From Planctomycetota bacterium (lineage in GTDB: Bacteria; Planctomycetota; Planctomycetia; Planctomycetales; Planctomycetaceae), in assembly GCA_039045975.1 (NCBI GenBank), contig JBCCJA010000005.1, positions 15,009 to 79,008 on the forward strand: a stretch of 64,000 nt of DNA. Direction: 5' to 3'. Of the stretch, positions 2,896 to 60,353 are shown piece by piece. The stretch's first letter is position 1. Each line of letters begins with the position of its first letter. The translations under genes and the position numbers were made by a program. Under the pieces are notes generated by a model. That model did not search any database. It had not been told where the DNA came from and was given only the letters and a program-made list of their open reading frames with translations.

Positions 2896-3267
2896 CTAGG
2901 CCTCGACCGGACGGATCGATTCACTAAGGCGTTTTCGCCAATGATCCGGAGATAGTCGAATCTCATCCAATAGTCGAACAGCCATCTTCGACGGCTTATT
3001 TATACCTTGCTCCCACGCCTGCACAGTTTTTACGTCCACGCCCAAGAACTCGGCAAAAACAGCCTGGCTGACATCTAGAACCGCACGAACGTCACGCACA
3101 TCGTCCGGTGTCTGGACCGTCGGTTGAAGGTCGAGAATGATCTTCCGGCAAGTGTATTTTGCAGAAACATTCCCACCGTTAGATCGCAAATCATCTCGAA
3201 ACTCTCGGAGAGCTTCGACGATTTCGTTTCCGAGATCACTTTCCCTAGGAATTCTATTTTTACTCAT
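2896..3267 (-). CDS. HTH (XRE-type) antitoxin, HigA-like
   Basis: Internal ATG at 3267 (MSKNRIPRESDL...) is preceded by GGAGA. The C-terminal part, VSQAVFAEFLGVDVKTVQAWEQGINKPSKMAVRLL, is a typical XRE helix-turn-helix. It lies 28 nt downstream of a RelE/HigB-like ORF. GC content is visibly lower than in the flanks. Confidence 0.7.
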   Translation of the reverse strand: MSKNRIPRESDLGNEIVEALREFRDDLRSNGGNVSAKYTCRKIILDLQPTVQTPDDVRDVRAVLDVSQAVFAEFLGVDVKTVQAWEQGINKPSKMAVRLLDEIRLSPDHWRKRLSESIRPVEA

Positions 3268-3295
3268 TTCTATCTCCGGCTGCAGGTAGTGCTCG

Positions 3296-3709
3296 CTAAG
3301 ACCAAGTCCGAGACGAAAGGTCGCTCTCGACCTCCTCAAGATACTTGGCAATATCGCGACGCTGAGCGGCTGTCAGATCACTTTTCTGACTCTTGCCGTA
3401 AGCTGTCACCAACAGCACAGCCCCCCATTTCGAGTAGTACACATAGCAAGCCCGGACACCACCCGACTTACCCGCATCACTCGCCTCCGATCGAAACCGA
3501 ACTTTCCGCAGTCCTCCGGTGCCGCGGATTACTTTCCCGCCTTCCGGCGATGACATGATCGCGACTTGCAACGCGAACAGGTCGTCATCAGTCATGCCCA
3601 AACGATTCCACGCCCTTTCGAAGGCGGGAAGCTCGATAAATGTCAGTGTGTCACTCAGATCCACCTTATCGGCAGGGTAAACGAACGTGGCAACAGACTT
3701 GAGTAGCAT
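3296..3709 (-). CDS. RelE/HigB-superfamily toxin (toxin-upstream arrangement)
   Basis: The motif block GGLRKVRFRSEASDAGKSGGVRACYVYYSKWGAVLLVTAYGKSQKSDLTAAQ matches the HigB-2/RelE-like pattern (GG.RK.R...GKSGG.R.iY......i.LL..Y.K....dL). The true start may be internal. Low-GC islet. Confidence 0.7.
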   Translation of the reverse strand: MLLKSVATFVYPADKVDLSDTLTFIELPAFERAWNRLGMTDDDLFALQVAIMSSPEGGKVIRGTGGLRKVRFRSEASDAGKSGGVRACYVYYSKWGAVLLVTAYGKSQKSDLTAAQRRDIAKYLEEVESDLSSRTWS

Positions 3710-3793
3710 CGTGCATCTCGCTTCACGAGCATGAGCAAACGCGCTCCCTCGCGTTACATCCTGCCGAAAAATGTATCCGATTGAATCGGATAG

Positions 3794-5221
3794 TCAAGCC
3801 GGGTTGTTACGCAACTCCTTCACCCGCCCCGCTTCCTCACGCCCTTTGTAAAACGGGTCGAGCGGGAAACAGCCCGAGACCATCCCGTTCCGCGGGGCCG
3901 ACGTGCAATCGCTGAACGTCCGGCACACCTTCTTCCGCTTCGGGAACGTCCCGGCAAACACGTCGGCCGGCAGCTCCGGGTACGACAGCACCATTCGCCC
4001 CAACCCGACGCTGTCGACCATGCCGGACCCGACCGCCGCGTCCGCCACGTTTGGCAGCCACTCCTGAAGATAGGAGTAGCCCGACCCGACGAGAGTCAGC
4101 TCCGGGAAATCACGCTTCAGTTCCGCCGTCACCGACACCTGCCGTGCGACCCCGACAAGCGGGTCTTCCGGCGGCAGATAGCCGTCCGACGGCGGAAAGA
4201 GCGCCGGCCGCGTCACGTGAGGCACGTAATACGGGCTCCCGGCCGTAGCGCAAATGAGCCGCACGCCGAGTGATTCGCACTGCCGCAAAAACTCCCGCGG
4301 CTCGGCCAGATCGATCCCGGTCCCCGAACCGTCGCCGCCGAACGCATAGCGGTAAGGCTCATCGACTCCCATCGGCCCACCGACATCGCCCTCACCCTTC
4401 GCGAACGGCACGAAGTCGAACACGCTGACCCTCACCCCGATCTCCAGGCCCGGCGCCTCGGCGCGGATCCCGTCGACGACTTCCCTGAGGAAGCGGGTGC
4501 GATTCTCGATCGTCCCGCCATATCGGCCCGGCCTGTCGTAGCCCGACAACAACTCGTGGCCCAGGTAACCGTGGCAGTGTTTTACGTCGACGAAGTCGAA
4601 CCCGGCCGACGCCGCCCGCCCCGCCGCGACGACGAAATCATCCCGCAGGGCTTGAAGCTCGTCGTCACTTAAAACCGCCTCGTCGCCACGGACGTCGAAC
4701 TTCGGATCGAGCAGAGGATGCCGATACGCCACGCGTGGCCGCGGGCCGTCGTCCGGCCGTGCGAACCGCCCCGAATGAGTCAGCTGCAGGCCGACGACCA
4801 AGTCGTCCTCGGCGCCGATCCCGAAAGCATCACGGTGTGCCGCAACCAGCGACTCGCGGAGTCCCGCGATATCGGCAGCATTCGCGTCCGTCATCACCAG
4901 TTGGTTGGGGTTGGCCCGACCGTCCTGACGGACCGCGACGGCCTCGCCCCCCCAAATCAATTTCGCCCCGCTCCGACCGAAGTTCCGCCAACGTCTTTCG
5001 GTCAACTCCGACGGCCGGCCGTCGGCCGTGCCGTCCCAGCCCTCCATAGGCAATACGCAGAATCGATTCCCGACCCGGCCGGCCGACGTCTCGAGCGATT
5101 CCGCCAACGGCCCGTTCGCGGCGACCGATTCGGAGAACGGCAGCGAAACACCGACCTCATCGAGCCGTACCGCAAACGCCTCGGCGGTCTTTAGGGACGC
5201 GACACGTGGATACGCCATCAC
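3794..5221 (-). CDS. NADH:flavin oxidoreductase (Old Yellow Enzyme family)
   Basis: [16 protein letters not shown] and [20 protein letters not shown] are OYE/TIM-barrel flavoprotein signatures. A Cys-rich C-terminal extension is present. Confidence 0.8.
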
Positions 5222-11143: not shown

Positions 11144-12547
11144 ATGCCCGACACGAACCCCGACACCCCGAAAAAAGCCTGGGGCGGCCGCTTCTCCGGC
11201 ACCTCCGACCCCCGCGTCGAAGCCTTCACCGAGTCGATCTCGTTCGACGCCCGCCTCGCCCCCTACGACGTCGCAGGATCGAAAGCCCACGCGACGATGC
11301 TCGCCGAAGTCGGCCTGCTCACCGCCGACGAGAAGGAGACGATCTGCGCGACACTCGATGAGATCTTGGGCGAGATCGAACGCGGCGAGCTGCCCTTCTC
11401 GCACGCGCTCGAAGACATCCACATGCACATCGAGAGCCGGCTCATCGAAAAGACCGGCGACGTCGGCCGCAAGCTGCACACCGCCCGCAGCCGCAACGAC
11501 CAGATCGCCACCGACACCAAACTCTTCCTCCGAGACGCCGTCGACCGCCTCGACCGACTCCTCAAAGATGTCCAACTCGCGTTCTTAAATCGCTGCGACA
11601 GCGATCTCGATGTTGTCATCCCCGCCTACACCCACCTGCAGCGGGCCATGCCGGTCAGTGCGAGTCACTACTGGCTCGCCTACATCGAAAAATTCCAACG
11701 CGACCGCGACCGCCTCGCCGACTGCCGTAAACGAATTAACATCTCCCCCCTCGGCTGCGCCGCGCTGGCTGGCAGCAGCCTGCCGATCGACCGCGACCGC
11801 ACCGCCGATCTATTGGGCTTCGATCGCCCCGCCGCCAATAGCCTCGACGTCTCATCCGACCGCGACCACCTGATCGAGTTCTGCGGAACGCTCGCGATCG
11901 TCGCGACCCACCTCTCCGGCTGGGCCGAGGAATGGATCCTCTGGTTCAGCACCGAGTTCGGCTTCATCAGCCTGCCCGAGGCCTACACCACCGGCAGCAG
12001 CATCATGCCGCAGAAGCGGAACCCTGACGTCCCGGAATTAATCCGCGGCAAAAGCGCCCGCGTCATCACCAGCGCGAACCAACTGCTCGTCCTCTGCAAA
12101 GGCCTCCCCATGGCCTACAACCGCGACCTCCAGGAAGACAAACCCCCCGTCTTCGACGCGTTCGACACGACCGCCGCCTGCCTCGAACTTCTGCCGAATT
12201 TAATCACCCACACCGAACTCAACCGCGACACCATCGCAGCCCGCCTTGAAGAAGGTTTTTTAGACGCCACCGCGCTCATGGAATACCTCATCAAAAAAGG
12301 CACCCCGATGCGGACCGCCCACCACACCGTCGGGGCGTTGGTGGCGGAAGCGGAGAAACGCCGCTGCACCCTCTCCGACCTCTCGCTCGATGACCTCAAG
12401 GCCGCCAATGGACTCATCGAGGCCGACGTCGCCGAAGTCCTCGGCACGACCAACGCCTGTGAAGCTCTGGTCAGCTACGGTTCAGGCGGCAGACAAATGG
12501 TAGCCAGTCGAATCGCCGCGTGGTCATCGCTGCTTGGCGAACCGTGA
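11144..12547 (+). CDS. argH: Argininosuccinate lyase
   Basis: [50 protein letters not shown] and [20 protein letters not shown] (fumarate-lyase signature) are present. The likely start is the second ATG at 11144. Confidence 0.93.
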
Positions 12548-12571
12548 GATTCTTGGCAGTGTACAAAAAAA

Positions 12572-12612
12572 GGCGCCCCGGGGGGCGCCGTCCCGGGAGG
12601 ACTAGTCCCGGG
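12572..12612 (+). terminator. Tandem GC-rich hairpins downstream of argH (possible terminator or boundary element)
   Basis: GGCGCCCC-GG-GGGGCGCC (12572-12589) and CCCGGGA-GGACTAG-TCCCGGG (12592-12612). There is no U-tract on the plus strand; an A-run precedes the hairpins. The segment is flanked by GTGTACA direct repeats at 12559-12565 and 12616-12622. Confidence 0.4.
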
Positions 12613-12662
12613 GTGGTGTACACGACACTTCGGAAGCATCACTCACAGCAGCTTTCTCGTCA

Positions 12663-13403
12663 ATGGCACGAAACAAGGGTTCGAAAAAACGCGTTACTGG
12701 CCACCGCGACAAGCACCGTTCTGTCGCAATCCCCACAAAACGCACTTTCGTTTACATCGACGGATTCAACCTCTACTACGGCATTCGCGACGCTGAACTC
12801 AGACGCTTTCTCTGGCTTGATGTTCTGAAACTCGCAAATTCGTTCATGCAGAAGGATCGCGTCCTCAGCAGGACGAAATACTTCACCGCAAGAATTCGAG
12901 GCGTGAATCGCCGCGATACGCCTGACGAAGCAAAAGCACGCGAGTCAAGCAGACTCCGGCAAAAGACGTATCTCGAAGCTGTACAATCACTTCCGGCAAC
13001 CGATGTGATCGAAGGTCATTTTCTGTGGAAGAACGCTAAGTGCGGCTCCTGCAATTCCCCGAATGTCTCAGCAGAAGAGAAGCTTACAGACGTAAACATC
13101 GCATCAGAAATGCTTTGCGATGCATTCTTGGGGCGGTTTGATCTGGCGATCGTCGTTTCTGGTGACAGCGACTTGAGCCCACCGATCGAACGCATCCGAC
13201 AGCATTTCCCTGCGAAGCCCGTTTTTGTGGCTTTTCCACCCAAGAGGCAGTCAGAACAACTCAAGGCAGTTGCGACAAGCCACTTTGACATCGCGGAAGA
13301 CCGACTGCGGAAGTGTCAGTTCCCAGATCAGCTGACCCTGCCATCCGGAGTGATTTTGAACCGGCCGAAGAAGTGGGCACCTCAGCCACCCGGTGCTGCT
13401 TGA
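12663..13403 (+). CDS. NYN (LabA-like, PIN-fold) domain protein with a Cys-containing insert
   Basis: FVYIDGFNLYYG, TDVNIASEMLCDA and LAIVVSGDSDLSPPIE are the acidic NYN/PIN catalytic blocks. CGSCNSP lies in the insert. GC content is clearly lower than in neighbouring genes. Confidence 0.75.
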   Translation: MARNKGSKKRVTGHRDKHRSVAIPTKRTFVYIDGFNLYYGIRDAELRRFLWLDVLKLANSFMQKDRVLSRTKYFTARIRGVNRRDTPDEAKARESSRLRQKTYLEAVQSLPATDVIEGHFLWKNAKCGSCNSPNVSAEEKLTDVNIASEMLCDAFLGRFDLAIVVSGDSDLSPPIERIRQHFPAKPVFVAFPPKRQSEQLKAVATSHFDIAEDRLRKCQFPDQLTLPSGVILNRPKKWAPQPPGAA

Positions 13404-17221: not shown

Positions 17222-17583
17222 CTCGAACCTCGGCCGGGCCGGCGATTGGCGCCCGTTTCAGGAATTTGCTCGGAGACGGGGCCCGAACCGCCGGACCCCG
17301 CCCGGCCGATCGGGCCGGGACGCGACACCATAAGCCGACCGCAAGGTCCGGCCCAGTCACGCCGCGACGCGACGCCCGGCCCGGCCTCTCGGCCCGACCG
17401 GCAACCACGACCGATCCTGCCGCCGCCCCCCAAAATACCGAACCGATTCGGCCCCCGGCCGACCGCCGCCGATCACATCGATCCCCCCGACCACGCGTTG
17501 ACCGTCGCGCGCGAAGCGAGATAAATTCCGCCCCGACGGCCGGACGACGCGGCACGAATCTGCCGCGTAAACCACTGGAAATA

Positions 17584-18132
17584 ATGGATTTACGGCACGT
17601 GCTCGGTTACCCGGTCCCGCTGACACTCGTAGTCGCCGTCTGCCTCACGGCCGCGGCCGACGCCCGCGAGTGGACCGCGGTCGTACTCCACCACACCGCG
17701 ACCGAAACGGGCTCCGTCGCCTCGATCGATGCCGCCCACCGACAGCGACGCGACGCCGACGGCAAGCCGTGGCTCGGCATCGGCTACCACTTCCTGATCG
17801 GCAACGGGAACGGCATGCCGGACGGCGCGGTCGAACCGACATTCCGCTGGGACCGTCAGCTGGCCGGCGCCCACGCGGGCGACTCCGCGATGAACCAACA
17901 CGCGATCGGCGTCGCGTTAGTCGGCAACTTCGAATCACGACCGCCGACCGCGCGACAGACCGAAGCCCTCGTCGCCCTCCTCAAAACCCTGGCGACGGAG
18001 CACGGCCTCGGTCCGGGCGACCTAATCGCCCACGCCGACGTCCGCCCGACTCTCTGCCCGGGCCGGCATTTCCCCCTCGCAGCGATCCGCGATGCGGTCG
18101 CGTCAGGCGAAACCACGGAGTCCCCCCGATGA
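17584..18132 (+). CDS. N-acetylmuramoyl-L-alanine amidase (Amidase_2/PGRP fold), secreted
   Basis: The internal ATG at 17584 gives a signal-like MDLRHVLGYPVPLTLVVAVCLTAAADA, followed by VVLHHTAT...GYHFLIGNGNG...AGAHAG...HADVRPTLCPG. Confidence 0.8.
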   Translation: MDLRHVLGYPVPLTLVVAVCLTAAADAREWTAVVLHHTATETGSVASIDAAHRQRRDADGKPWLGIGYHFLIGNGNGMPDGAVEPTFRWDRQLAGAHAGDSAMNQHAIGVALVGNFESRPPTARQTEALVALLKTLATEHGLGPGDLIAHADVRPTLCPGRHFPLAAIRDAVASGETTESPR

Positions 18133-24773: not shown

Positions 24774-25820
24774 TTAAGAACCGACGAACTCGGCGTGCAG
24801 CGACCGCGCCCGGGCCACGTCTTCGGTCCCGTGCACGATCGTCCGGCCGTCACGAAAGACCGTAAATTCGTAGCGGGCAGGGCCGACGTCACGGGCGAAA
24901 CGGACCCAGTGACGGGTCGCCGTCACGCCGTCCGGTCCCGAGATCCGCTGCGTAAAAATCGGGAACGAGAACGGCATCTCCGCGTCGGCGGCGACCTGCA
25001 CCGCGTTCCGCCCGCATAGCACGGTCGAAGACGATCCCCGGCGTTCTTCGAGCCAGTCACGCCGCCCGCGGCACGCCGGGCAGTCAGGGTCGGGCCCGCC
25101 GACATCGATCAGGTTCACCCGCGGCTGCCAGCAGTCGACGACCGCCAGCGTCGGCGTGACCGCAAGACGACCCGCCGCGAGCACCTTGAGGGCCTGTGCC
25201 GCCGCGAGCGACGCGATCACACCCACCGCCGGCCCGATCACCCCCGCCGTGTCACAGGTCGGCCCGTCACCGGCCGCGGGCGGCTCCGGCATCAGGCACC
25301 GCAGGCACGCCGTCCGGCCGGGATCGATCGCGAGCACCTGCCCCTCGGCCCCGAGCACGCCGGCGAAGACCCACGGCAAGTCGAACTCGTGGGCGGCGTC
25401 ATTCAATAAGTAACGCGTCTCGAAATTGTCGGTCCCGTCGAGGATCAGGTCGACGTCAGCGGCCAAATCGCGGACCACTGACGCCGTCACGTCGACGACG
25501 TGCGGCTCGACCCGGCAGGCCGAATTGATCGCCGACAGCCGCTCCGCGGCCGCGACCGCTTTCGGAATCGATGCCGTCGCGTCGGCCTCCGTGAACAACG
25601 TCTGCCGCGGCAGGTTCGACGCCTCGACGATGTCCCGGTCGGCCAGCCGCAACGTCCCGACGCCGGCCCGCACGAGCGATTCCGCCAGGACCGAACCGAG
25701 CGCCCCGCAACCACACAGAAAAACCCGAGCGCCGGCGATCCGACGTTGACCGTCGACACCGACCGGTCCGAACCGGGTCTGCTTCAAATAGCGGGCGGCG
25801 TCGAACGGAGTTTCTGACAT
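24774..25820 (-). CDS. ThiF/MoeB/HesA-family adenylyltransferase (E1-like) with a ~90-aa C-terminal domain
   Basis: RVFLCGCGALGSVLAESLVRAGVGTLRLADRDIVEASNLPRQTLF (Rossmann/ATP motif), the CLRC...CPAC zinc cysteines, and the C-terminal FRDGRTIVHGTEDVARARSLH as in long MoeB-type proteins. Confidence 0.85.
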   Translation of the reverse strand: MSETPFDAARYLKQTRFGPVGVDGQRRIAGARVFLCGCGALGSVLAESLVRAGVGTLRLADRDIVEASNLPRQTLFTEADATASIPKAVAAAERLSAINSACRVEPHVVDVTASVVRDLAADVDLILDGTDNFETRYLLNDAAHEFDLPWVFAGVLGAEGQVLAIDPGRTACLRCLMPEPPAAGDGPTCDTAGVIGPAVGVIASLAAAQALKVLAAGRLAVTPTLAVVDCWQPRVNLIDVGGPDPDCPACRGRRDWLEERRGSSSTVLCGRNAVQVAADAEMPFSFPIFTQRISGPDGVTATRHWVRFARDVGPARYEFTVFRDGRTIVHGTEDVARARSLHAEFVGS

Positions 25821-25952
25821 ATCGGCGATGATTTCTCGAACGCAGTCTCAAACAGTCCGCGGGCAAGATCAAACAGTCACCCTCGGCACTTTTGAGACAC
25901 CACGCCGACGGCCATCGTCCGGGGCATTCTTGTGTCCGGCGAAGGCCCATCC

Positions 25953-26336
25953 ATGTCGACCGTCGACAAAGACCGCGTGAAGATCGTCCTGCCCCGCAGC
26001 GGCAGCGACAGCTTCTGGGCGACCGTCCACGACCACTACGCCGGCGAAGACAAGCTGCTGTGGAAACGGCTCGCGATGCTCGCGCTGCGGGAGAACGCAG
26101 GCTGGCCGCTCGACCGCATCGGCGACGTATTCGGCCACCACAAAGGCCACGTCCAACGCTCGATCGAGAAGACGAAGGCCGACATGCGGGACCGCTTCAA
26201 AGCGTCGCCCGAATTCCTCGACCTCGACGGCCCAGACACGCCCATGCCCGACACGCCGACGCACGAAGGCCCGCGAAACGGACCGCCGCGTGACGACGTC
26301 CGCTCGTCCGACCCCCGCCGCGGGGGCCGCCGATGA
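25953..26336 (+). CDS. Small hypothetical protein with a sigma-70 region-4-like HTH
   Basis: GWPLDRIGDVFGHHKGHVQRSIEKTKADMRDRF looks like an HTH. Good GC3. The stop overlaps the ParB-like start (ATGA). The function is not established. Confidence 0.45.
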   Translation: MSTVDKDRVKIVLPRSGSDSFWATVHDHYAGEDKLLWKRLAMLALRENAGWPLDRIGDVFGHHKGHVQRSIEKTKADMRDRFKASPEFLDLDGPDTPMPDTPTHEGPRNGPPRDDVRSSDPRRGGRR

Positions 26337-26905
26337 ACCTGCGAGACATCCCGCTCGAACGCCTCAAGCCGGCCCCATACAACCCCCGCGTGTCGCTGAG
26401 GCCGGGCGACCCCGGCTACGAGCGACTCGCCCGCTCACTCGCCGAGTTCGACCTCGTCGAACCCCTCGTCTGGAACGAACGGACGGGTCACGTCGTCGGG
26501 GGCCACCAGCGGCTCGCGATCTTAAAAAACGACGGCGCGACGTCGGCCCCCTGTGTCGTCGTCGACCTCGACGACGAACGGGAGCGGGCGCTCAACGTCG
26601 CGCTCAATAACGAACGCGTCGGCGGCGACTGGGACCCGGTCAGACTCGTCGACCTGCTCGCCGAACTGGGCGACGTCCCCGACTTCGACGCGACGCTGAC
26701 CGGCTTCGACGCCGACGAACTCGCCGACCTCGTCCTCGCCCCACCGCCCGAATCGTTACCGGACCAGACGGACGAAGAAGTCGCCGACGTCGTCCGCGTC
26801 GCACTCCAAATCTCCCCGACCGCCTGGGAGGCCGTCCGGGCCGACCTCGACGCGCTCGTCGCGAGGCACCGGCTGACCCCGCGGATCACTCTCCCGGATC
26901 ATTAA
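26333..26905 (+). CDS. ParB-like nuclease (ParB/Srx N-terminal) domain protein
   Basis: IPLERLKPAPYNPR...LARSLAEFDLVEPLVWNERTGHVVGGHQRLAIL matches the ParBc pattern (i....l.p...NPR ... dG.HRl.A). There is no C-terminal ParB dimerisation or HTH region. Confidence 0.75.
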   Translation: MNLRDIPLERLKPAPYNPRVSLRPGDPGYERLARSLAEFDLVEPLVWNERTGHVVGGHQRLAILKNDGATSAPCVVVDLDDERERALNVALNNERVGGDWDPVRLVDLLAELGDVPDFDATLTGFDADELADLVLAPPPESLPDQTDEEVADVVRVALQISPTAWEAVRADLDALVARHRLTPRITLPDH

Positions 26906-26911
26906 TTGAGA

Positions 26912-26954
26912 CCCCCTCTCCCCCGCCCCGGGGGAGAGGGCCGGGGTGAGGGGG
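26912..26954. repeat. REP-like hairpin element, copy B (type 2)
   Basis: CCCTCTCCCCC-GCCCC-GGGGGAGAGGG (26914-26940, 11-bp stem) is followed by CCGGGGTGAGGGGG. It is nearly the reverse complement of the copy at 53381. Confidence 0.7.
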
Positions 26955-27051
26955 CCACAACGGCGCTCCCAGACACGGCCGCCGGTCCATCCGACTTCAG
27001 GACGACCGATCGCCTCCCGCAACGACCAATTAAATTCCCGAAAGACAGCCG

Positions 27052-28380
27052 GTGAGCATCACTCTCGATTTATCAGTCCGCTACCGCTTCCGACCCGCCA
27101 CGCCGTCCTCACACGTCGCGTTGCTCACCGATCACTTCGGAGTCGGTGAAGACACCGCCGAACACGTCATCGCCGACAACCTCCGGCTCGACCTCGACGC
27201 GACCGACGTCGTCTTCTTCAGCGGCCCCAGCGGCTCAGGCAAGTCGAGCCTGCTGCGGGCCGCCGTCGGAGAACTCGGCCGGCGGGACGCGACCATCGTC
27301 GCGGCCGAAGACGTCGTCTTGCCCGAATGTCCGCTCATCGACGGGCTCGGCCTGCCGTTCGACGACGCCCTCGCGCTGCTCACGTCGTGCGGGCTCGCCG
27401 AGCCGCAGGTCCTGCTCCGCACGCCGCGTGAACTCTCCGACGGCCAGCGGTTCCGCTACCGACTGGCGGTCGCCGTAGCCGGGCTGCGGTCGTTGCCGGC
27501 CGGAACAATCCGATTCGTATCGGTCGACGAATTCACCGCGACCCTCGACCGCACACTCGCGCGGGTCGTCGCCTTCAACCTCGGCCGACTCGCCCGCCGC
27601 GAGGGCTTCGGCGTCCTCGCCGCGACGACGCACGAAGACGTCGCCGACGACCTCGCCCCGTCGGTCCGCGTCCGCTGCGACCTCGACGGGACGCCCGTCG
27701 TCGACCGGCAAGACGTAAAAAAAAAACGCGCCGTCGGCTTCCTCTGCGACCTCGAAGTCACGACCGGCTCGCGACGCGACTGGCCGTATTTCGCTCGGTG
27801 GCATTACCGCGGACACGACATCGGGCTCAGCCGCTTCGTGACGGTCCTTTGGCACGCCGACCGCCCGGTCGGGGTCTGCGTCTTCACCGTCCCGCCGCTG
27901 TCGTTGGCGCAACGGAACCGGTTTTTCCGGAGGACCGGGCGGTGGTCGCGGGTCTCGATCCGGGCGATGAACGCCCAGCTCGCGCACCTGTCACGCGTCG
28001 TCCTGCACCCCGCTTATCGCGGGGCCGGCATCGCCGCACGGTTCGTCCGCGTCTCCTGCCGGGCCGCCCCGTACCCGTGGATCGAGTCACTCGCCGCGAT
28101 GGGCCGGCTGCATCCGTTCCTCGAACGGGCCGGCTTCGTCCGCGTCGGACCGTCGCGGGCGTGGCGGAAAGACCGGGCCGGCCATTCCGCGATCTACGGC
28201 GTCCCGCAGAAACGAACCGATGCCCCGCAAGTCACCCGACCCGACGAAATCCGACGCCGCCCGCGAAAGCGGCTCGTCTCGGCCGAAACGTTCGCCAAAA
28301 GCCTCCACGCCCGCCCGGTCTACTTCGTCTTCGACAACCGCGAGTCGTTCCGGTCCCGACGCGAACGCCCGCCGACGTGA
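27052..28380 (+). CDS. Soluble ABC-type ATPase fused to a GNAT-like acetyltransferase domain
   Basis: Walker A FFSGPSGSGKSSLL, ABC signature LSDGQRFRYRLA, Walker B IRFVSVDEFTATLD, H-loop LAATTHED. C-terminal half: LSRVVLHPAYRGAGIAARFV, resembling the GNAT acetyl-CoA-binding block (Q/R-x-x-G-x-G/A). GTG start. Confidence 0.7.
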   Translation: MSITLDLSVRYRFRPATPSSHVALLTDHFGVGEDTAEHVIADNLRLDLDATDVVFFSGPSGSGKSSLLRAAVGELGRRDATIVAAEDVVLPECPLIDGLGLPFDDALALLTSCGLAEPQVLLRTPRELSDGQRFRYRLAVAVAGLRSLPAGTIRFVSVDEFTATLDRTLARVVAFNLGRLARREGFGVLAATTHEDVADDLAPSVRVRCDLDGTPVVDRQDVKKKRAVGFLCDLEVTTGSRRDWPYFARWHYRGHDIGLSRFVTVLWHADRPVGVCVFTVPPLSLAQRNRFFRRTGRWSRVSIRAMNAQLAHLSRVVLHPAYRGAGIAARFVRVSCRAAPYPWIESLAAMGRLHPFLERAGFVRVGPSRAWRKDRAGHSAIYGVPQKRTDAPQVTRPDEIRRRPRKRLVSAETFAKSLHARPVYFVFDNRESFRSRRERPPT

Positions 28381-28792
28381 CCCAAAGTCGGGCCGCTTCA
28401 AGAAGTTCCTCCCCTTCAACGACGAAGCCAAAGACGAAACCCTCGACCTGATCGCCCACGGCGCGAGCCCCGCCGCCGTCTGCCGCAAACTCGACGTATC
28501 ACCGCAGGCCCTCTATCGGGCCGAGCAGGACGACGCAGACTTCGCCGAACGCCTCGCCGCCGTCCGCCGCTCGCTGACGGAAAACATCGAGGCGGCCCTC
28601 TACCGCTCGGCGATGGAGGGCTCCGTCCCGGCCCAGACGCAGTGGCTGAAGCAGCGTCTCGTCGACCGCGACGGCGAGGACCGCGACGACCCCGACCTCG
28701 CCCGGCTCGAAGCACTCTCCGACGAAGAACTCGCCGCGATGGCCCGAGCCTACGGCGTCACGCTGCCCGAGCCCGAAGAACGGCCCCAGTGA
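28220..28792 (+). CDS. HTH DNA-binding protein, terminase-small-subunit-like
   Basis: DETLDLIAHGASPAAVCRKLDVSPQALYRAEQDDADFAERLAAVRR is an HTH typical of small terminase or excisionase-like proteins. It lies immediately upstream of TerL with an overlap. The only canonical start (ATG 28220) lies 161 nt inside the preceding ORF, so the start is uncertain. Confidence 0.45.
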   Translation: MPRKSPDPTKSDAARESGSSRPKRSPKASTPARSTSSSTTASRSGPDANARRRDPKSGRFKKFLPFNDEAKDETLDLIAHGASPAAVCRKLDVSPQALYRAEQDDADFAERLAAVRRSLTENIEAALYRSAMEGSVPAQTQWLKQRLVDRDGEDRDDPDLARLEALSDEELAAMARAYGVTLPEPEERPQ

Positions 28793-30342
28793 GCAGCCAC
28801 GGCCACGGCGTCGCCGACCTCGTCCGCCGCCTGCCGCGCGGCTGGCGACGCCCGGCGATCCAGAAGCTCCGCATCGTCTTCGAGCGGATCCGCCGGCTCT
28901 CCGCGAAGACGCCCGCCGAGTTCCGCCGACGGCTCCGCCTCACGCCGCTCGACCAAGTCACCCTCGGCGACCGTCTGACCGACTGGCAGAAACGCGACTT
29001 CGCCGCCCTCGACGACGCCTGGACGCGTCTGGCAAAGATCGGCCCGACCGACGACCGCCCGGTCGTCCGCCGGGCCTACCTCGAACGCCCGCGGGGGCAC
29101 TCGAAGACGACCGACCTCGCCGTCCAACTGGCCTGGCTGCTCCGCTTCTCGCCGGTCCGGCTCCGCGGCGTCGTCGCCGCCGCCGACCGCGAGCAGGCGA
29201 AGCTGCTCAAGGACGCCCTCGCCGGCATCGCCGCCGCCAACCCGCAATGGCTCGGACAGCTCAAGTTCCGGGCCGACTCGGTCGGCAATCCGATCACAGG
29301 CTCCGAGGCGACGTTTCTCGCCTCGCACGTCGCCAGTTCGTACGGACTGACGCCCGATTTCGTCGTCTGCGACGAACTCTGCCATTGGACGAAAGAGGAA
29401 TTCTGGCAGTCGCTCGTCTCCGCCGCGGGGAAGCGGCCCGACTGCGTCCTCGTCGTCCTCAGCAATGCCGGCAGCGGGCACGACTGGCGCTGGGACGCAC
29501 GGGAAGCGGCACGCCTCGGCGCGACGGCCGACACGCAATCACCGACCTGGCATTTTTCGACGCTCGACGGCCCGCAGGCCCCGTGGGTCACGGAAGAATC
29601 ACTCGCCGAACAACGCCGCCTGCTCCCGACGGCCGTCTTCGAGCGGCTGTGGCTCAACCGCTGGCAACAGGCCGAGGGGAGCCTGTTCACGCCGACCGAG
29701 GTCGAAGCCTGCGTCGACGACTCGCTCGCCGAGCGCGACGTAGGAACACCCGGAGTCCGTTACGTCGCCGCCGCCGACTACGCAGAAAAACACGACCTGA
29801 CCGCCTGCGTCGTCCTGCACCAAGAACCGACCGAGGACGGCGGCGACCGCATCGTCATCGACCGGCTCGACGTGTTCGTGCCGACGCCCGAAAAACCGAC
29901 GCCCGTCCGGGTCGTCCGCGATTGGATCGTCCGCACCGCCGCCGCCTTCGGCGACGTCCGCTTCGTCGTCGACGAGTTCCAACTCGCCGGCATGGTCCAA
30001 GAGCTCGAGCCGTCGCTCGACGTATCGCGGTTCGAGTTCGCGTCGGGACGCGGCAACCACGAACTCGCGCTCCGCCTCCGCCGCGCGGTCGCCGAGACGC
30101 GTCTCATCTGGCCCCCAGGCTGCGGCGCGAGACCCGACCGGCCCGACGACGACCTGGCGGCGGAGCTGATCGCGTTGAAAATGATCGAACGGCCGAACGG
30201 CCGCGTGCGGATCGATCACGACCGGCTCGGCCACGACGACCGCGCTTTCGCCGTCGGGGCGGCGCTCGTCGAACTCGGACGCACGGACACGACGTCCGCT
30301 CCGGAAACGCTCGAGATCGAACAGGGACGCCTGCTCGACTGA
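28789..30342 (+). CDS. Phage terminase large subunit-like protein
   Basis: GTG at 28789 overlaps the preceding stop. Walker-A-like PRGHSKTTD, Walker-B-like FVVCDELCHW, and nuclease-half acidic blocks YVAAADYAEKHD, FVVDEFQ, GHDDRAFA. The upstream part of the 566-aa track ORF is R-rich shadow. Confidence 0.8.
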   Translation: MSSHGHGVADLVRRLPRGWRRPAIQKLRIVFERIRRLSAKTPAEFRRRLRLTPLDQVTLGDRLTDWQKRDFAALDDAWTRLAKIGPTDDRPVVRRAYLERPRGHSKTTDLAVQLAWLLRFSPVRLRGVVAAADREQAKLLKDALAGIAAANPQWLGQLKFRADSVGNPITGSEATFLASHVASSYGLTPDFVVCDELCHWTKEEFWQSLVSAAGKRPDCVLVVLSNAGSGHDWRWDAREAARLGATADTQSPTWHFSTLDGPQAPWVTEESLAEQRRLLPTAVFERLWLNRWQQAEGSLFTPTEVEACVDDSLAERDVGTPGVRYVAAADYAEKHDLTACVVLHQEPTEDGGDRIVIDRLDVFVPTPEKPTPVRVVRDWIVRTAAAFGDVRFVVDEFQLAGMVQELEPSLDVSRFEFASGRGNHELALRLRRAVAETRLIWPPGCGARPDRPDDDLAAELIALKMIERPNGRVRIDHDRLGHDDRAFAVGAALVELGRTDTTSAPETLEIEQGRLLD

Positions 30343-30388
30343 ATCCCGTCGGGAGTCCGGGTTCTGTCGGAAAAACGTCCGCAACGCT

Positions 30389-30469
30389 GTAGGGCCCCCG
30401 CCTGCCGCATTTCGAGCATACGTGACGCCTGAGATCACCGGAAATTCGGCAGGCGGGGGCCTGCCCTAC
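30389..30469. repeat. Long imperfect palindrome between convergent TerL and rfbD (bidirectional terminator or boundary element)
   Basis: GGCCCCCGCCTGCCG (30393-30407) is the exact reverse complement of CGGCAGGCGGGGGCC (30447-30461). Pairing extends inward (ATTTC/GAAAT after one mismatch) and outward (GTAG/CTAC across a 4-nt bulge). Confidence 0.6.
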
Positions 30470-30486
30470 GACTTTTCCGACGCGGG

Positions 30487-31362
30487 CTAAGAGCTTTCCC
30501 GGATGACCTTCATGTGACGGCCCAGCGCGTCTTCCCAAGAGGGCATCTGACGCCCGATCACGCCCGCGAGCTTCGACGTATCGAGCACCGAATAGGGCGG
30601 ACGGGCCGCCGGGGCACCGAACTCGGCCGAGGTGATCGCCCGCACTTCGGTCGGCAGGCCGGCCTCGGCGAAAATCTTCCGGGCGAACCGGCACCACGTC
30701 GTCGTGCCGCCGTTCACGGCGTGATACAGACCGTACGCATCGGTTCCGCAGAGCTCGATCAGCGCCGCCGCGAGATCGACCGTCGAGGTCGGCGTGCAGT
30801 ACTGGTCATCGACGACCGTCAAGACGGGACGACTCTCCGCGAGCCGGAGCATCGTCTTCACGAAACTACCTTTATCAGGCGCCGCAGACCCATACAGACC
30901 GCAGGTTCTCACGACGAAATGCCGGCGGCAGGCCTGGCGGACGAAGTACTCGCCCGCGAGCTTGCTGACCGCGTAGGCGCTCAGCGGGCCGGGGGCCGCG
31001 TCCTCGCGATACGGTTCGCCCCGCATCCCCGCCGACCCGAACACGAAGTCGGTGCTCACGTGCACGAGAACGAGCCCGAGCTCGTCGCAGACCTTCGCCA
31101 AGTTTCGCGGACCTTCGGCGTTCACACGGAACGCGGCCGCAGGTTCCGACTCGGCCTTATCGACCGCGTTGTACGCCGCGCAGTTAATCACGACGCCGAC
31201 GCCCGCGGCCGCGATCGTCTCCTCGGCCCTCGGATCGGTGATATCGAGCCGGTCTCGGGACAGCCCGACGGCCCGCTCGTCCAACATGCCGCACAGCTCG
31301 GCACCCAACTGGCCCTCGGCGCCGGTAATAAGAATCCGCGGGCCGTCCCCCGTCACACTCAT
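30487..31362 (-). CDS. rfbD: dTDP-4-dehydrorhamnose reductase
   Basis: RILITGAEGQLGAEL (NAD fold), VHVSTDFVF and YAVSKLAGE (YxxxK) are present. Confidence 0.88.
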   Translation of the reverse strand: MSVTGDGPRILITGAEGQLGAELCGMLDERAVGLSRDRLDITDPRAEETIAAAGVGVVINCAAYNAVDKAESEPAAAFRVNAEGPRNLAKVCDELGLVLVHVSTDFVFGSAGMRGEPYREDAAPGPLSAYAVSKLAGEYFVRQACRRHFVVRTCGLYGSAAPDKGSFVKTMLRLAESRPVLTVVDDQYCTPTSTVDLAAALIELCGTDAYGLYHAVNGGTTTWCRFARKIFAEAGLPTEVRAITSAEFGAPAARPPYSVLDTSKLAGVIGRQMPSWEDALGRHMKVIRESS

Positions 31363-58680: not shown

Positions 58681-59478
58681 TCAGTCCCGACTGTCGCAGA
58701 CGATCCGCGGCCTGCCCGAACGGCCCGCCTCGCGAGAAAGGCGAAACGACCGATTCAAGACCGACGACCGTCGCCACCCGTCCGCGTCGGCGGCCGCTTG
58801 GGTGAATCCGTCCCCGTCGTGGACGAGCAGCTCGAACTCGATCCTCGCGCCCCGGGCGTCGACGAGCCAATACTCCGCAACACCCGCGGCTTCGTAAGCA
58901 TCTCGCAAGCGGCTCTTGTCTTTCGTGACCGACGATTTACTCACGACTTCGACGACGATGTCGGGCGGCCCGGCGAGCACGAGCGCGTCTTCGCCCTCCT
59001 CGGCCGGCTCGTTCCGATGATCACGCAGCGAGACACGGCCCGAATCGAGCGACTCGTGGCTGACAAAGACGACGTCCGGCTCGACCGCGAAATCACAGCC
59101 GGGAAGGACCACCAGCGTCTGATGAGTCTGCAATACGCCGAGATCATTGTGATCGACGATGTTGCCGATCGCCCGGGCCAACACTTCAACGAAGCGTCCG
59201 TGCGAAAAGATCTTCGGAGGCGACATGTCGCACTCCACCACGCCGTCGACGTACGAGATCTTTCCACGGGACGGAAACGCATCCGAACAGGCCCAACGCA
59301 CGAAGCCGTCGAGCGTGTCGATCGGCGGAATGACGAAGTCGGTCCCGGCCCACGGGTCGTAATACCGCACGGCCGCAGGTCGGGAGGTCTTGCCGTTCTC
59401 ACCCTTTGCGGCTGCTGTCACGGTCGCCATCGCGTCGGCCTCTACAGTCCCGGACCGTTTCATGTCCGGTGTCGTCAT
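58681..59478 (-). CDS. Uma2-family (DUF820) PD-(D/E)xK endonuclease-like protein
   Basis: AVEPDVVFV ... PDIVVEVVSKSSVTKDKSRLRDAYEAAGVAEYWLVD is the typical Uma2 D...(D/E)xK core and C-terminal block. The N-terminal ~50 aa may not be translated. Confidence 0.75.
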   Translation of the reverse strand: MTTPDMKRSGTVEADAMATVTAAAKGENGKTSRPAAVRYYDPWAGTDFVIPPIDTLDGFVRWACSDAFPSRGKISYVDGVVECDMSPPKIFSHGRFVEVLARAIGNIVDHNDLGVLQTHQTLVVLPGCDFAVEPDVVFVSHESLDSGRVSLRDHRNEPAEEGEDALVLAGPPDIVVEVVSKSSVTKDKSRLRDAYEAAGVAEYWLVDARGARIEFELLVHDGDGFTQAAADADGWRRSSVLNRSFRLSREAGRSGRPRIVCDSRD

Positions 59479-59525
59479 CGTATCACCGGGCCGGAGTCAC
59501 CGGACGACCGTTTTCTGACCGCCCC

Positions 59526-60353
59526 ATGCCCGAACTGCCCGAGGTCGAGACGATGGTCCGCGGCGTCCGCGACGCCGTCGTCGGGCGCCAGGTCACAGCC
59601 GTCCGCCGCTGCCGCTGCCGGTTCAAGCCGCTCAAAGTCGGCCCGACGTTCGCCACGCTCGCCAAGCGAACCCGTGGCTGTCGCGTCGAAGCGGTGACGC
59701 GGTTCGCGAAGCGGTTCGTGCTCGAACTCTCCGGCGAACTCCGCGTCGCCGTCGAGCCGCGGATGACCGGGCTGATGCTCCTCGCCGACCCGCCCGACCG
59801 GTCGCACTTGCGGTTCGAGTGGCGGTTCGCCGACGGCGGGCCGTCCCTGTGGCATTGGGACCGCCGCGGGCTCGGCACGATGACGCTGTACGACGCGGCC
59901 GGCTGGGCCGCCCTCCGCCGCAGCCTCGGACCCGACGCCCTCGAAATGACGCCCGCCCTGTGGCGGGAACGGCTCGCCAAGACGTCCCGGGCCGTCAAAG
60001 TCGCGCTCCTCGACCCGAAGGTCGTCGCCGGCATCGGCAACATCTACGCCAGCGAGTCGCTGCACGTCGCCGGCATCGACCCGGCCCGCCCGGCGTCGGG
60101 CCTCAGCCATAATGAGACTGACCGCCTCGCCGACGCCGCCCGCGACGTGCTCACGACCGCGATCGCCCACGAAGGCTCGACCCTCGCCGACGGCACGTAC
60201 CGCAACGCGTTGAACCGGGAAGGTAAGTATCAGAACTCACACCGCGTCTACGCCCGGGCGGGGGAGACTTGCCCGACCTGTCGCCGCGGCGAGGTCGTCC
60301 GTCTCGTCCAGGCCCAGCGGTCGACCTTTTTCTGCCCCGCCTGCCAGGCCTGA
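59526..60353 (+). CDS. mutM: Formamidopyrimidine-DNA glycosylase
   Basis: The internal ATG gives MPELPEVETMVRGV (catalytic Pro2/Glu3). H2TH block GIGNIYASESLHVAGIDP and the C-terminal zinc finger CPTCRRGEVVRLVQAQRSTFFCPACQ. Confidence 0.92.
   Translation: MPELPEVETMVRGVRDAVVGRQVTAVRRCRCRFKPLKVGPTFATLAKRTRGCRVEAVTRFAKRFVLELSGELRVAVEPRMTGLMLLADPPDRSHLRFEWRFADGGPSLWHWDRRGLGTMTLYDAAGWAALRRSLGPDALEMTPALWRERLAKTSRAVKVALLDPKVVAGIGNIYASESLHVAGIDPARPASGLSHNETDRLADAARDVLTTAIAHEGSTLADGTYRNALNREGKYQNSHRVYARAGETCPTCRRGEVVRLVQAQRSTFFCPACQA

Follow-up and report, generated by a model that had tools for sequence, protein, structure and literature searches.

Gene transfer agents (GTAs) are known from only a handful of lineages, and we know of none from the phylum Planctomycetota. 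RcGTA, a viriform of the Alphaproteobacteria, has a head of the HK97 type. Phage satellites, among them capsid-forming phage-inducible chromosomal islands (PICIs), carry integrase, repressor and replication modules, vary between strains and are mobilized by helper phages. Here we describe a cassette of five genes in a 64,000-nucleotide (nt) stretch of a Planctomycetaceae metagenome-assembled genome (MAG; GenBank assembly GCA_039045975.1, contig JBCCJA010000005.1, positions 15,009 to 79,008; hereafter the window). Its genes, g1 to g5, encode in order a helix-turn-helix (HTH) protein, a ParB/Srx protein, an ABC-ATPase fused to a GNAT-like domain, a TerS-like small terminase and a large terminase, TerL. 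We consider it probable, at roughly 60%, that this cassette is the packaging module of an ancient, chromosomally fixed, vertically inherited and domesticated GTA-like phage head(-tail) cluster of the Planctomycetaceae, which in this genome has been split from its head genes. We report homology, synteny, dispersal, selection and conservation of a slippery site. An initial annotation made from the sequence had offered several readings of the cassette, of which a GTA-type or otherwise retained unit now fits best. Literature searches for planctomycete GTAs and conserved prophages returned no paper describing the cluster.

Recurrence and full extent of the cluster

The gene order (HTH, ParB,) ABC-GNAT, TerS, TerL recurs in a neighbourhood sample of at least 20 genome loci (TerL profile search), five IMG/VR loci and four look-ups; a genome-contig search with the single TerL protein as query gave no match. 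The block is therefore not peculiar to one strain; it was uniqueness without conservation that the initial annotation had held would speak against a retained unit. There are 739 TerL homologues; the best 120 of the 739 are 46-55% identical, and the named ones all belong to Planctomycetota, mostly Planctomycetaceae (Maioricimonas, Alienimonas, Polystyrenella and Calycomorphotria, with Planctopirus, Planctomyces and Symmachiella coming from locus searches). In a set of 50,697 phage records the best TerL match reaches no more than 25% identity. The complete set of five genes is found in L002, L008, L009, L015, L047 and L048, g2-g5 in L007, which is a short contig, and g3-g5 in L003, L004, L005, L010, L011, L023, L024, L036 and L043.

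A divergent ThiF gene adjoins g1 in six genomes (in L008, L009, L015, L047 and L048 at 47-54% identity), and flank and cassette genes have diverged to a similar degree, as expected of vertical inheritance at a site conserved across the clade. The block adjoins the same divergent ThiF in the complete genomes of the cultured Stratiformator vulcanicus (CP036268) and Planctellipticum variicoloris (CP130886). The S. vulcanicus flank (CitMHS ... RR-GerE - ThiF) matches that of the window with identities of 66%, 78% and 54%, and the cassette genes of the two are 42-59% identical. Because this flank is common to both, the window represents the same locus on the chromosome, truncated immediately behind TerL. 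In the star-like tree of TerL, linked, unlinked and ThiF-adjacent loci are interspersed.

In S. vulcanicus and P. variicoloris the block runs on beyond TerL. Starting from ThiF, the contiguous order is HTH, ParB/Srx, ABC-ATPase/GNAT, TerS, TerL, portal (PF05136), protease/scaffold-like, decoration-like and major capsid (PF25209), then some six small genes of neck/tail-like type, a short one resembling a tape-measure gene and a distal protein of 570-600 amino acids (aa). The element as a whole measures about 15 kb, and no gene for an integrase, a repressor, replication or lysis is seen in it. Portal and capsid are lambda-like. An isolate-derived contig (L024/L038) has, after the capsid gene, a Neck1/tail-completion-like gene followed by genes for a 252-aa tape-measure-like, a 162-aa and a 572-aa protein, and its cluster ends in host glycosyltransferase genes with no integrase; that of L002 ends similarly. 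The gene content of a GTA, a head(-tail) set without replication, integration or lysogeny genes, is found in L047, L048, L002 and L024/L038, while the window itself holds packaging genes only.

The head genes often lie elsewhere or are missing. A portal gene stands directly 3' of TerL in 7 of the 18 genome or viral loci with enough sequence and not in the other 11, the window counted; of six metagenome loci in which 2.5 kb or more follows TerL, three have the portal and three do not. Portal/capsid genes follow TerL in L002, L003, L023, L024, L036, L047 and L048 and do not in L004, L005, L006, L008, L010, L011, L012 and L043; the portal of L014 is found 5 kb further downstream of TerL, and L009 has capsid genes beyond ThiF on the opposite strand. 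The initial annotation had proposed that blocks always followed by portal and capsid genes would make this copy a truncated prophage, a pattern that holds for the seven loci just named but fails in about half. Where no portal follows, the next gene belongs to the ordinary core genome and encodes, for example, fumarase, DnaA, an ATP-synthase subunit, an apurinic/apyrimidinic endonuclease or a NERD-domain nuclease. The orphan TerL gene of one Planctomycetaceae MAG (L006, 1519-2973, minus strand) is convergent with dnaA and directly beside it. In Symmachiella dynata, TerL is followed by a portal, an unannotated 163-aa open reading frame (ORF) and host genes, with no recognizable protease or capsid gene there, and in GCA_006365075 a lone portal gene sits between those for RNase Y and ClpB, about 372 kb from an intact ABC-GNAT-TerS-TerL block on the same contig. 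The portal family is conserved as widely as TerL (1266 matches, the top matches listed being 56-65% identical). Since many Planctomycetaceae keep the cluster at fixed or scattered chromosomal sites, it is a candidate new GTA-like system rather than random prophage scrap.

Integrity and selection of the cassette genes

In the window the cassette consists of five intact co-directional ORFs on the plus strand (25953-30342), and Pfam and PHROG matches bear out the domains given in the initial annotation. The tight coupling described there holds for the overlaps of g1 with g2 (ATGA at 26333) and of g4 with g5 (GTGA at 28789), but the 146-nt, hairpin-bearing gap between g2 and g3 means that the five genes are not all tightly coupled, and g4 overlaps g3 by as much as 161 nt. 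That overlap depends on ATG 28220, the only canonical in-frame start of g4, which is itself uncertain: the homologous part of g4 begins at about 28440, the GC content at third codon positions (GC3) within 28220-28380 favours g3 (0.80 in its frame against 0.68 in that of g4), and the resulting 190-aa product differs from the one recorded by NCBI for the same MAG (exact look-up). Orthologues of g4 sit between g3 and TerL in every locus. For g1 and g5 the starts used are those of the NCBI-recorded products (MEM7810432 / AAF532_03000, an exact look-up, and MEM7810436), and g1 orthologues 59-63% identical occupy the equivalent position in L002, L015 and L047.

The sequence of g5 has the architecture of a large terminase, with a Walker A/B ATPase in its N-terminal part and an acidic RNase-H-like nuclease in its C-terminal part; the phrog_9 match spans residues 96-490 of the 566-aa ORF submitted. 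Both motifs pointed out in the initial annotation, GHSKT and CDELCHW, are present, and G103, K106, T107, D195, E196, D330, D395, D483 and D484 are invariant in 37 sequences, the acidic residues among them presumably forming the nuclease site. In the GGHQR motif of g2, G57, H58 and R60 are likewise invariant, SSU5_126 and the BUCTxx99 ParB/Srx protein included. Neither TerL nor the ParB/Srx protein shows the mutated catalytic residues that the initial annotation would have counted against a retained unit.

Pfam assigns ABC_tran and Acetyltransf_7/1 to g3. Its AlphaFold2 model (predicted local distance difference test score 87) matches ABC nucleotide-binding-domain folds in the PDB at 1e-8, all of them generic ABC transporter domains, and over its full length matches the fold of a 'GNAT' protein of Leptospira phage LE4 (E 2.6e-21). 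We also considered the DNA-modifying GNAT Mom of phages as a relative; its fold match ranked 46 and was judged too weak to use. Walker A, signature, Walker B, H-loop and the GNAT RGAG motif are all invariant in 38 g3 homologues.

The composition of the cassette is that of its host, as first noted from codon bias: GC3 of the cassette ORFs is 0.81-0.87, compared with about 0.85 in the adjoining genes, and across 19 loci the GC content of TerL tracks that of its flanks over 0.50-0.67 (r = 0.97). A 2.2-kb contig of a sister MAG (L044) is 97.3% identical to the window over 27033-29205, and in the non-overlapping parts of the genes the two differ by 32 synonymous and 15 nonsynonymous changes, the reverse of the neutral expectation of about 2.7 nonsynonymous to one synonymous. 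The ratio of nonsynonymous to synonymous rates (dN/dS) is 0.17 for g3, 0 for g4 and 0.30 for g5. The cassette therefore combines purifying selection with host-like composition, as GTA genes do.

A poly-A run at the ABC-GNAT junction

The two domains of g3 meet at a run of ten A (A10; Table 1). We compared this junction in the window, L003-L015, L023, L036, L043, L044 and L049-L168. L044 has A9 instead, with GNAT in the -1 frame, and among the TerL-linked loci nine have A9 with GNAT at -1, three have A8 and two have A10 with GNAT in frame. In the A9 loci a 0-frame stop follows 32-37 codons past the run, and the GNAT frame, with its conserved KK(K)xISF...DWPYFARWHY, begins right at the run; its first start codon comes, in most of these loci, 98-120 nt past the run, after the invariant DWPYFARWHY. 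The halves of g3 in the A9 genomes were also considered as independently initiated genes, which the position of DWPYFARWHY upstream of that first start rules out. In L007, L011 and L036 a TAA shuts the GNAT frame right at the run.

A motif scan of metagenomes gave 109 loci with an upstream ABC domain. GNAT lies in the -1 frame in 75 of the 109 (69%), and 65 of these 75 carry an A8-A10 run (A9 in 51, A8 in 12, A10 in 2); the ten without a long A run have A5-6G (three) or no A run (seven: L059, L069, L108, L111, L158, L161 and L163). Several of the latter have T runs at the ISF codons (TCT TTT TTC, AGT TTT TTC, TCT TTT TTT), which may be alternative slippery sites. In the remaining loci GNAT is at +1 (3/109) or in frame (31/109, most of which lack a run and have an Arg-rich linker). 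The 0-frame phasing, GT(A/T) AAA AAA AAN, is that of the canonical in-phase heptamer A_AAA_AAN. An in-phase run, an early 0-frame stop and a -1 domain without a start are found together in the relatives.

Going by these sequences, in about 69% of the family the joining of ABC to GNAT requires either that the ribosome shift by -1 or that RNA polymerase insert one additional A, and slippage on the run would fix the ratio of ABC to ABC-GNAT product in most relatives. In the window A10 puts the two domains in frame, hence no shift is needed there; the window shows the rare state in which the ABC-GNAT fusion is the default product. Similar arrangements are found in programmed -1 frameshifting and slippage (dnaX tau/gamma, IS911, the phage tail chaperone G/GT), which share with this family the in-phase A_AAA_AAN heptamer or A9 run, a stop in the 0 frame after a further 32-37 codons, two products with one N-terminus and a downstream domain in the -1 frame lacking a start of its own. 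The family differs from them in that the gene is an ABC-ATPase/GNAT gene beside terminase genes, that the run toggles between A8, A9 and A10 among relatives with an in-frame fusion in a minority, and that the shift is predicted from sequence. Literature searches on this frameshift and on COG2401 found nothing relevant. The conserved poly-A site would be a new case of programmed frameshifting, and one that can be tested directly.

Interpretation and alternative explanations

We propose that in this genome the ancestral ThiF-side locus kept the packaging half only, the head genes having moved or been lost, and that an exopolysaccharide locus came to abut TerL. In such a cluster g1 would bind a repeated operator and regulate the block; TerS, aided by the ParB/Srx and ABC-ATPase/GNAT proteins, would select and hold DNA, and TerL would cut it and drive it into capsids by way of a portal encoded elsewhere. 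That particles are made, which DNA is packaged and what g1-g3 do, we infer from the genes. More tentatively still, the Planctomycetaceae, and perhaps the wider Planctomycetia, might carry an undescribed, independently domesticated GTA-like system, with about 20 phage-derived genes under selection though scattered singly, a packaging module of ParB/Srx and ABC-GNAT genes with isoforms set by frameshifting, and the window as its packaging locus.

Several points weigh against a domesticated cluster. TerL scores 23.6 bits against PF03354, just under the gathering threshold of 23.7. Our search for portal and capsid genes covered the 64-kb window of a 114-kb contig, and the cassette could be a stranded leftover. 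Vertical inheritance is argued from synteny, composition and the star-like tree, and phages can match host GC as well. No particles, lysis genes or regulators are known for the cluster. Finally, of 34 ABC-GNAT genes in metagenome loci where 2.5 kb or more follows (among L054-L167), 23 have no TerS/TerL after them, so that g3 may have a host role independent of packaging; such solitary genes mean either that the cluster is extremely scattered or that ABC-GNAT serves the host in a role of its own. The ParB gene is likewise absent 5' of ABC-GNAT in 32 of 44 metagenome loci.

The main rival, which we regard as unlikely, is that the five genes are a functionless, decaying leftover, the head-tail half of a domesticated cluster, or of an old prophage, having been deleted from the ThiF locus. 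It would account for relatives at the same locus that run on into portal and capsid genes while in the window a convergent host gene comes 144 nt after TerL, with no head genes in the 64 kb, and the difference between A10 here and A9 in L044 shows that the locus mutates readily. Against decay stand the five intact ORFs, the invariant catalytic residues, the excess of synonymous over nonsynonymous changes against L044, and the same undamaged orphan state in many genomes that have diverged deeply, one or more of which keep a portal elsewhere.

The cassette might instead be a stand-alone unit that does not package, a defence system or a satellite-type hijacker acting against or on incoming phage DNA. 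This we find improbable, even though many genomes keep the block without structural genes and the ABC-GNAT gene is often solitary. PADLOC-DB yielded no defence-system match for the cassette proteins, its only hits being generic domain matches (the ParB N-domain to MTase_II and, weakly, the ABC P-loop to the MADS ATPases mad3/mad8), with none of any kind for TerL, TerS or g1, and there is no defence-island context. The integrase, master repressor and primase/replication module of PICIs are missing from the window ORFs scanned and from the flanks of relatives, the genes of which lie in core-genome contexts. Portal and capsid genes co-occur with the block in the same genomes and are equally conserved, and in BUCTxx99, an isolated phage, the terminase and portal genes come immediately after the same module. 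Neither the defence-cassette nor the satellite reading of the initial annotation is supported.

Its statement that the 64 kb hold no virion or integration gene was upheld: Pfam scans of about 47 window ORFs matched housekeeping, regulatory and exopolysaccharide families alone, none of them that of an integrase or virion protein, and portal, protease, decoration and capsid proteins of relatives found no tblastn match in the window. An integrated prophage would be expected to bring an integrase, att sites, a repressor and replication and lysis modules, none of which was seen in these ORFs or in the relatives' flanks. A temperate phage or capsid-forming satellite family still mobile and integrating beside ThiF is the least probable explanation, for although three IMG/VR contigs (L023, L024 and L027) have this TerL followed by portal and capsid genes, and the head genes resemble those of lambda, the ThiF-g1 spacing is 132-445 nt in most loci with no att or integrase inside, the cluster ends in host glycosyltransferases, its genes are scattered singly among housekeeping genes, no near-identical copies occur across genomes, the tree is star-like, and the 'virus' L024 is a piece of an isolate genome, its 56-kb stretch being otherwise host-like as far as read.

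Flanks of the cassette and other features of the window

The locus is anchored by the ThiF gene, divergent from g1 (Table 1). We considered ThiF as a part of the element and ruled this out, since it is a full-length housekeeping-type MoeB/ThiF-family protein and other loci lack it in their flanks. Also encoded 5' of the cassette are CsrA, a LuxR-type response regulator and a CitMHS transporter. The ThiF/g1 intergenic region contains TCAAACAGTC at 25848-25857 and 25869-25878, spaced 21 nt apart; these are the sole copies in the 64 kb (0.05 expected), and the pair is a candidate operator. S. vulcanicus carries CACAAACAGAAC in the equivalent region. A scan of the intergenic region for sigma-70-like promoters found no site. 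By eye, a GCGCAAC(A) motif recurs 5' of g1 in L002, L008, L015 and L048, with GCGCAGCAAC as a variant in L009 and inexact versions in the window and L047; these genomes may thereby share a site for a promoter or a regulator.

On the other side, rfbD is indeed the convergent next gene, as initially annotated, its stop only 144 nt from that of TerL, and the 21-nt inverted repeat between them marks the point at which the cluster is cut off. Beyond rfbD come rfbC and a host exopolysaccharide/exosortase locus of about 12 kb. A comparison of right flanks, with the exopolysaccharide locus as possible ancestral neighbour of the cluster end, revealed no genes in common.

Table 1. Positions of the cassette genes, neighbouring genes and sequence features in the window
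Feature	Position	Strand	Remarks
ThiF/MoeB-family adenylyltransferase, host gene	24774-25820	-	Pfam ThiF 1e-68; full-length NCBIfam NF009123
Divergent ThiF/g1 intergenic region, candidate operator or promoter	25821-25952		Two TCAAACAGTC copies
g1, small HTH-like protein, first gene of conserved block	25953-26336	+	127 aa; weak HTH_23 match
g2, ParB/Srx N-terminal-domain protein	26333-26905	+	ParB_N domain; phrog_620/498 1e-35; GGHQR motif
Perfect 12-bp stem hairpin, just 3' of g2 in 146-nt g2-g3 spacer	26914-26940		Between g2 and g3
g3, ABC-type ATPase (~residues 1-215) fused to GNAT-like domain (~226-442)	27052-28380	+	442 aa
A10 homopolymer, ABC/GNAT junction	27717-27726	+	Only A run of eight or more in 64-kb window; domains in frame
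g4, TerS-like small terminase	28220-28792	+	phrog_4044 8e-9; weak Sf6_terminase match
g5, large terminase TerL (ATPase + nuclease)	28789-30342	+	517 aa; phrog_9 1.6e-33
21-nt inverted repeat between convergent TerL and rfbD, terminator-like	30393-30461		95% complementary
rfbD/RmlD	30487-31362	-	Pfam 6.9e-87; convergent; opens the host exopolysaccharide/exosortase locus; occupies portal's place in relatives

Elsewhere in the window, about 8 kb 5' of the cassette, an Amidase_2 (N-acetylmuramoyl-L-alanine amidase) gene (17266-18132, plus strand) may encode either a usual enzyme of the cell wall or a protein of endolysin type. ARAGORN called a 90-nt tRNA-His with anticodon ATG (60061-60150, minus strand) that overlaps an Fpg/MutM ORF (59406-60353); this sole tRNA call, 30 kb from the cassette, is probably a false positive. 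GC content dips to 0.55 at 3001-4000 and to 0.58 at 12001-13000, the latter around an NYN-domain gene (12663-13403), compared with about 0.67 overall, and both dips may be foreign insertions.

Comparison with known systems

The initial annotation knew of no described system with this composition, a claim that phage genomes contradict. Homologues of g3 occur in isolated phages, namely SSU5-like phage-plasmids of Salmonella, Escherichia and Klebsiella, Pseudomonas phage nickie and its relatives, and phages of Stenotrophomonas, Xanthomonas, Rhizobium, Gordonia and Leptospira. Stenotrophomonas phage BUCTxx99 is annotated with the order ParB-like, ParB/Srx, ABC ATPase, a hypothetical (GNAT-like) protein, small ORFs, terminase and portal; in Salmonella phage SSU5 this series goes as far as the small ORFs, where the linear record ends. 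Given this ParB-ABC-GNAT-terminase order in phages, the composition of the cassette is not new, and its function is uncharacterized there too. The modules of SSU5 and other phage-plasmids, BUCTxx99, nickie, Xanthomonas phage JGB6 and LE4 share with the cassette their gene order and orientation, a g3 that in full-length matches is 28-35% identical over 74-83% of its length (E down to 1e-37) and the invariant GH.R ParB/Srx motif of g2, and that of BUCTxx99 also its place directly 5' of terminase and portal. They differ in belonging to bona fide phages of about 100-120 kb and in having ABC and GNAT as separate genes, SSU5 without a poly-A junction. Judged by these homologies, the accessory genes g2 and g3 appear to come from phages, and the link points to an uncharacterized ParB/ABC-GNAT terminase accessory with a wide distribution among true phages.

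Capsid-forming PICIs and other phage satellites resemble the planctomycete cluster as small elements with their own terminase, portal and capsid genes and less than a full phage genome. In contrast to theirs, its genes are dispersed in core-genome contexts, and none of the satellite genes named at the outset was found with them.

The cluster also resembles RcGTA. Both are head-tail clusters of about 15 kb in which TerS and TerL come first, followed by portal, protease and capsid; both lack integrase, replication and lysogeny genes and have some genes at other loci, and both show a fixed chromosomal site, vertical conservation across a clade, purifying selection and host-like composition. The planctomycete cluster, which is known from genes alone and from another phylum, differs in its PF05136 portal, PF25209 capsid and decoration protein, which make its origin apparently independent, in its extra HTH, ParB/Srx and ABC-GNAT module, and in a far greater scattering of its genes, down to single ones. 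Each independent domestication of a GTA shows bacteria turning phages into gene-exchange organelles, and the present cluster, if confirmed, would be one more. S. vulcanicus, P. variicoloris and S. dynata, all of them cultured and completely sequenced, would offer strains in which to study it. Because its genes stay conserved as singletons, a family-wide planctomycete capsid-packaging set would, if real, be the most fragmented example.

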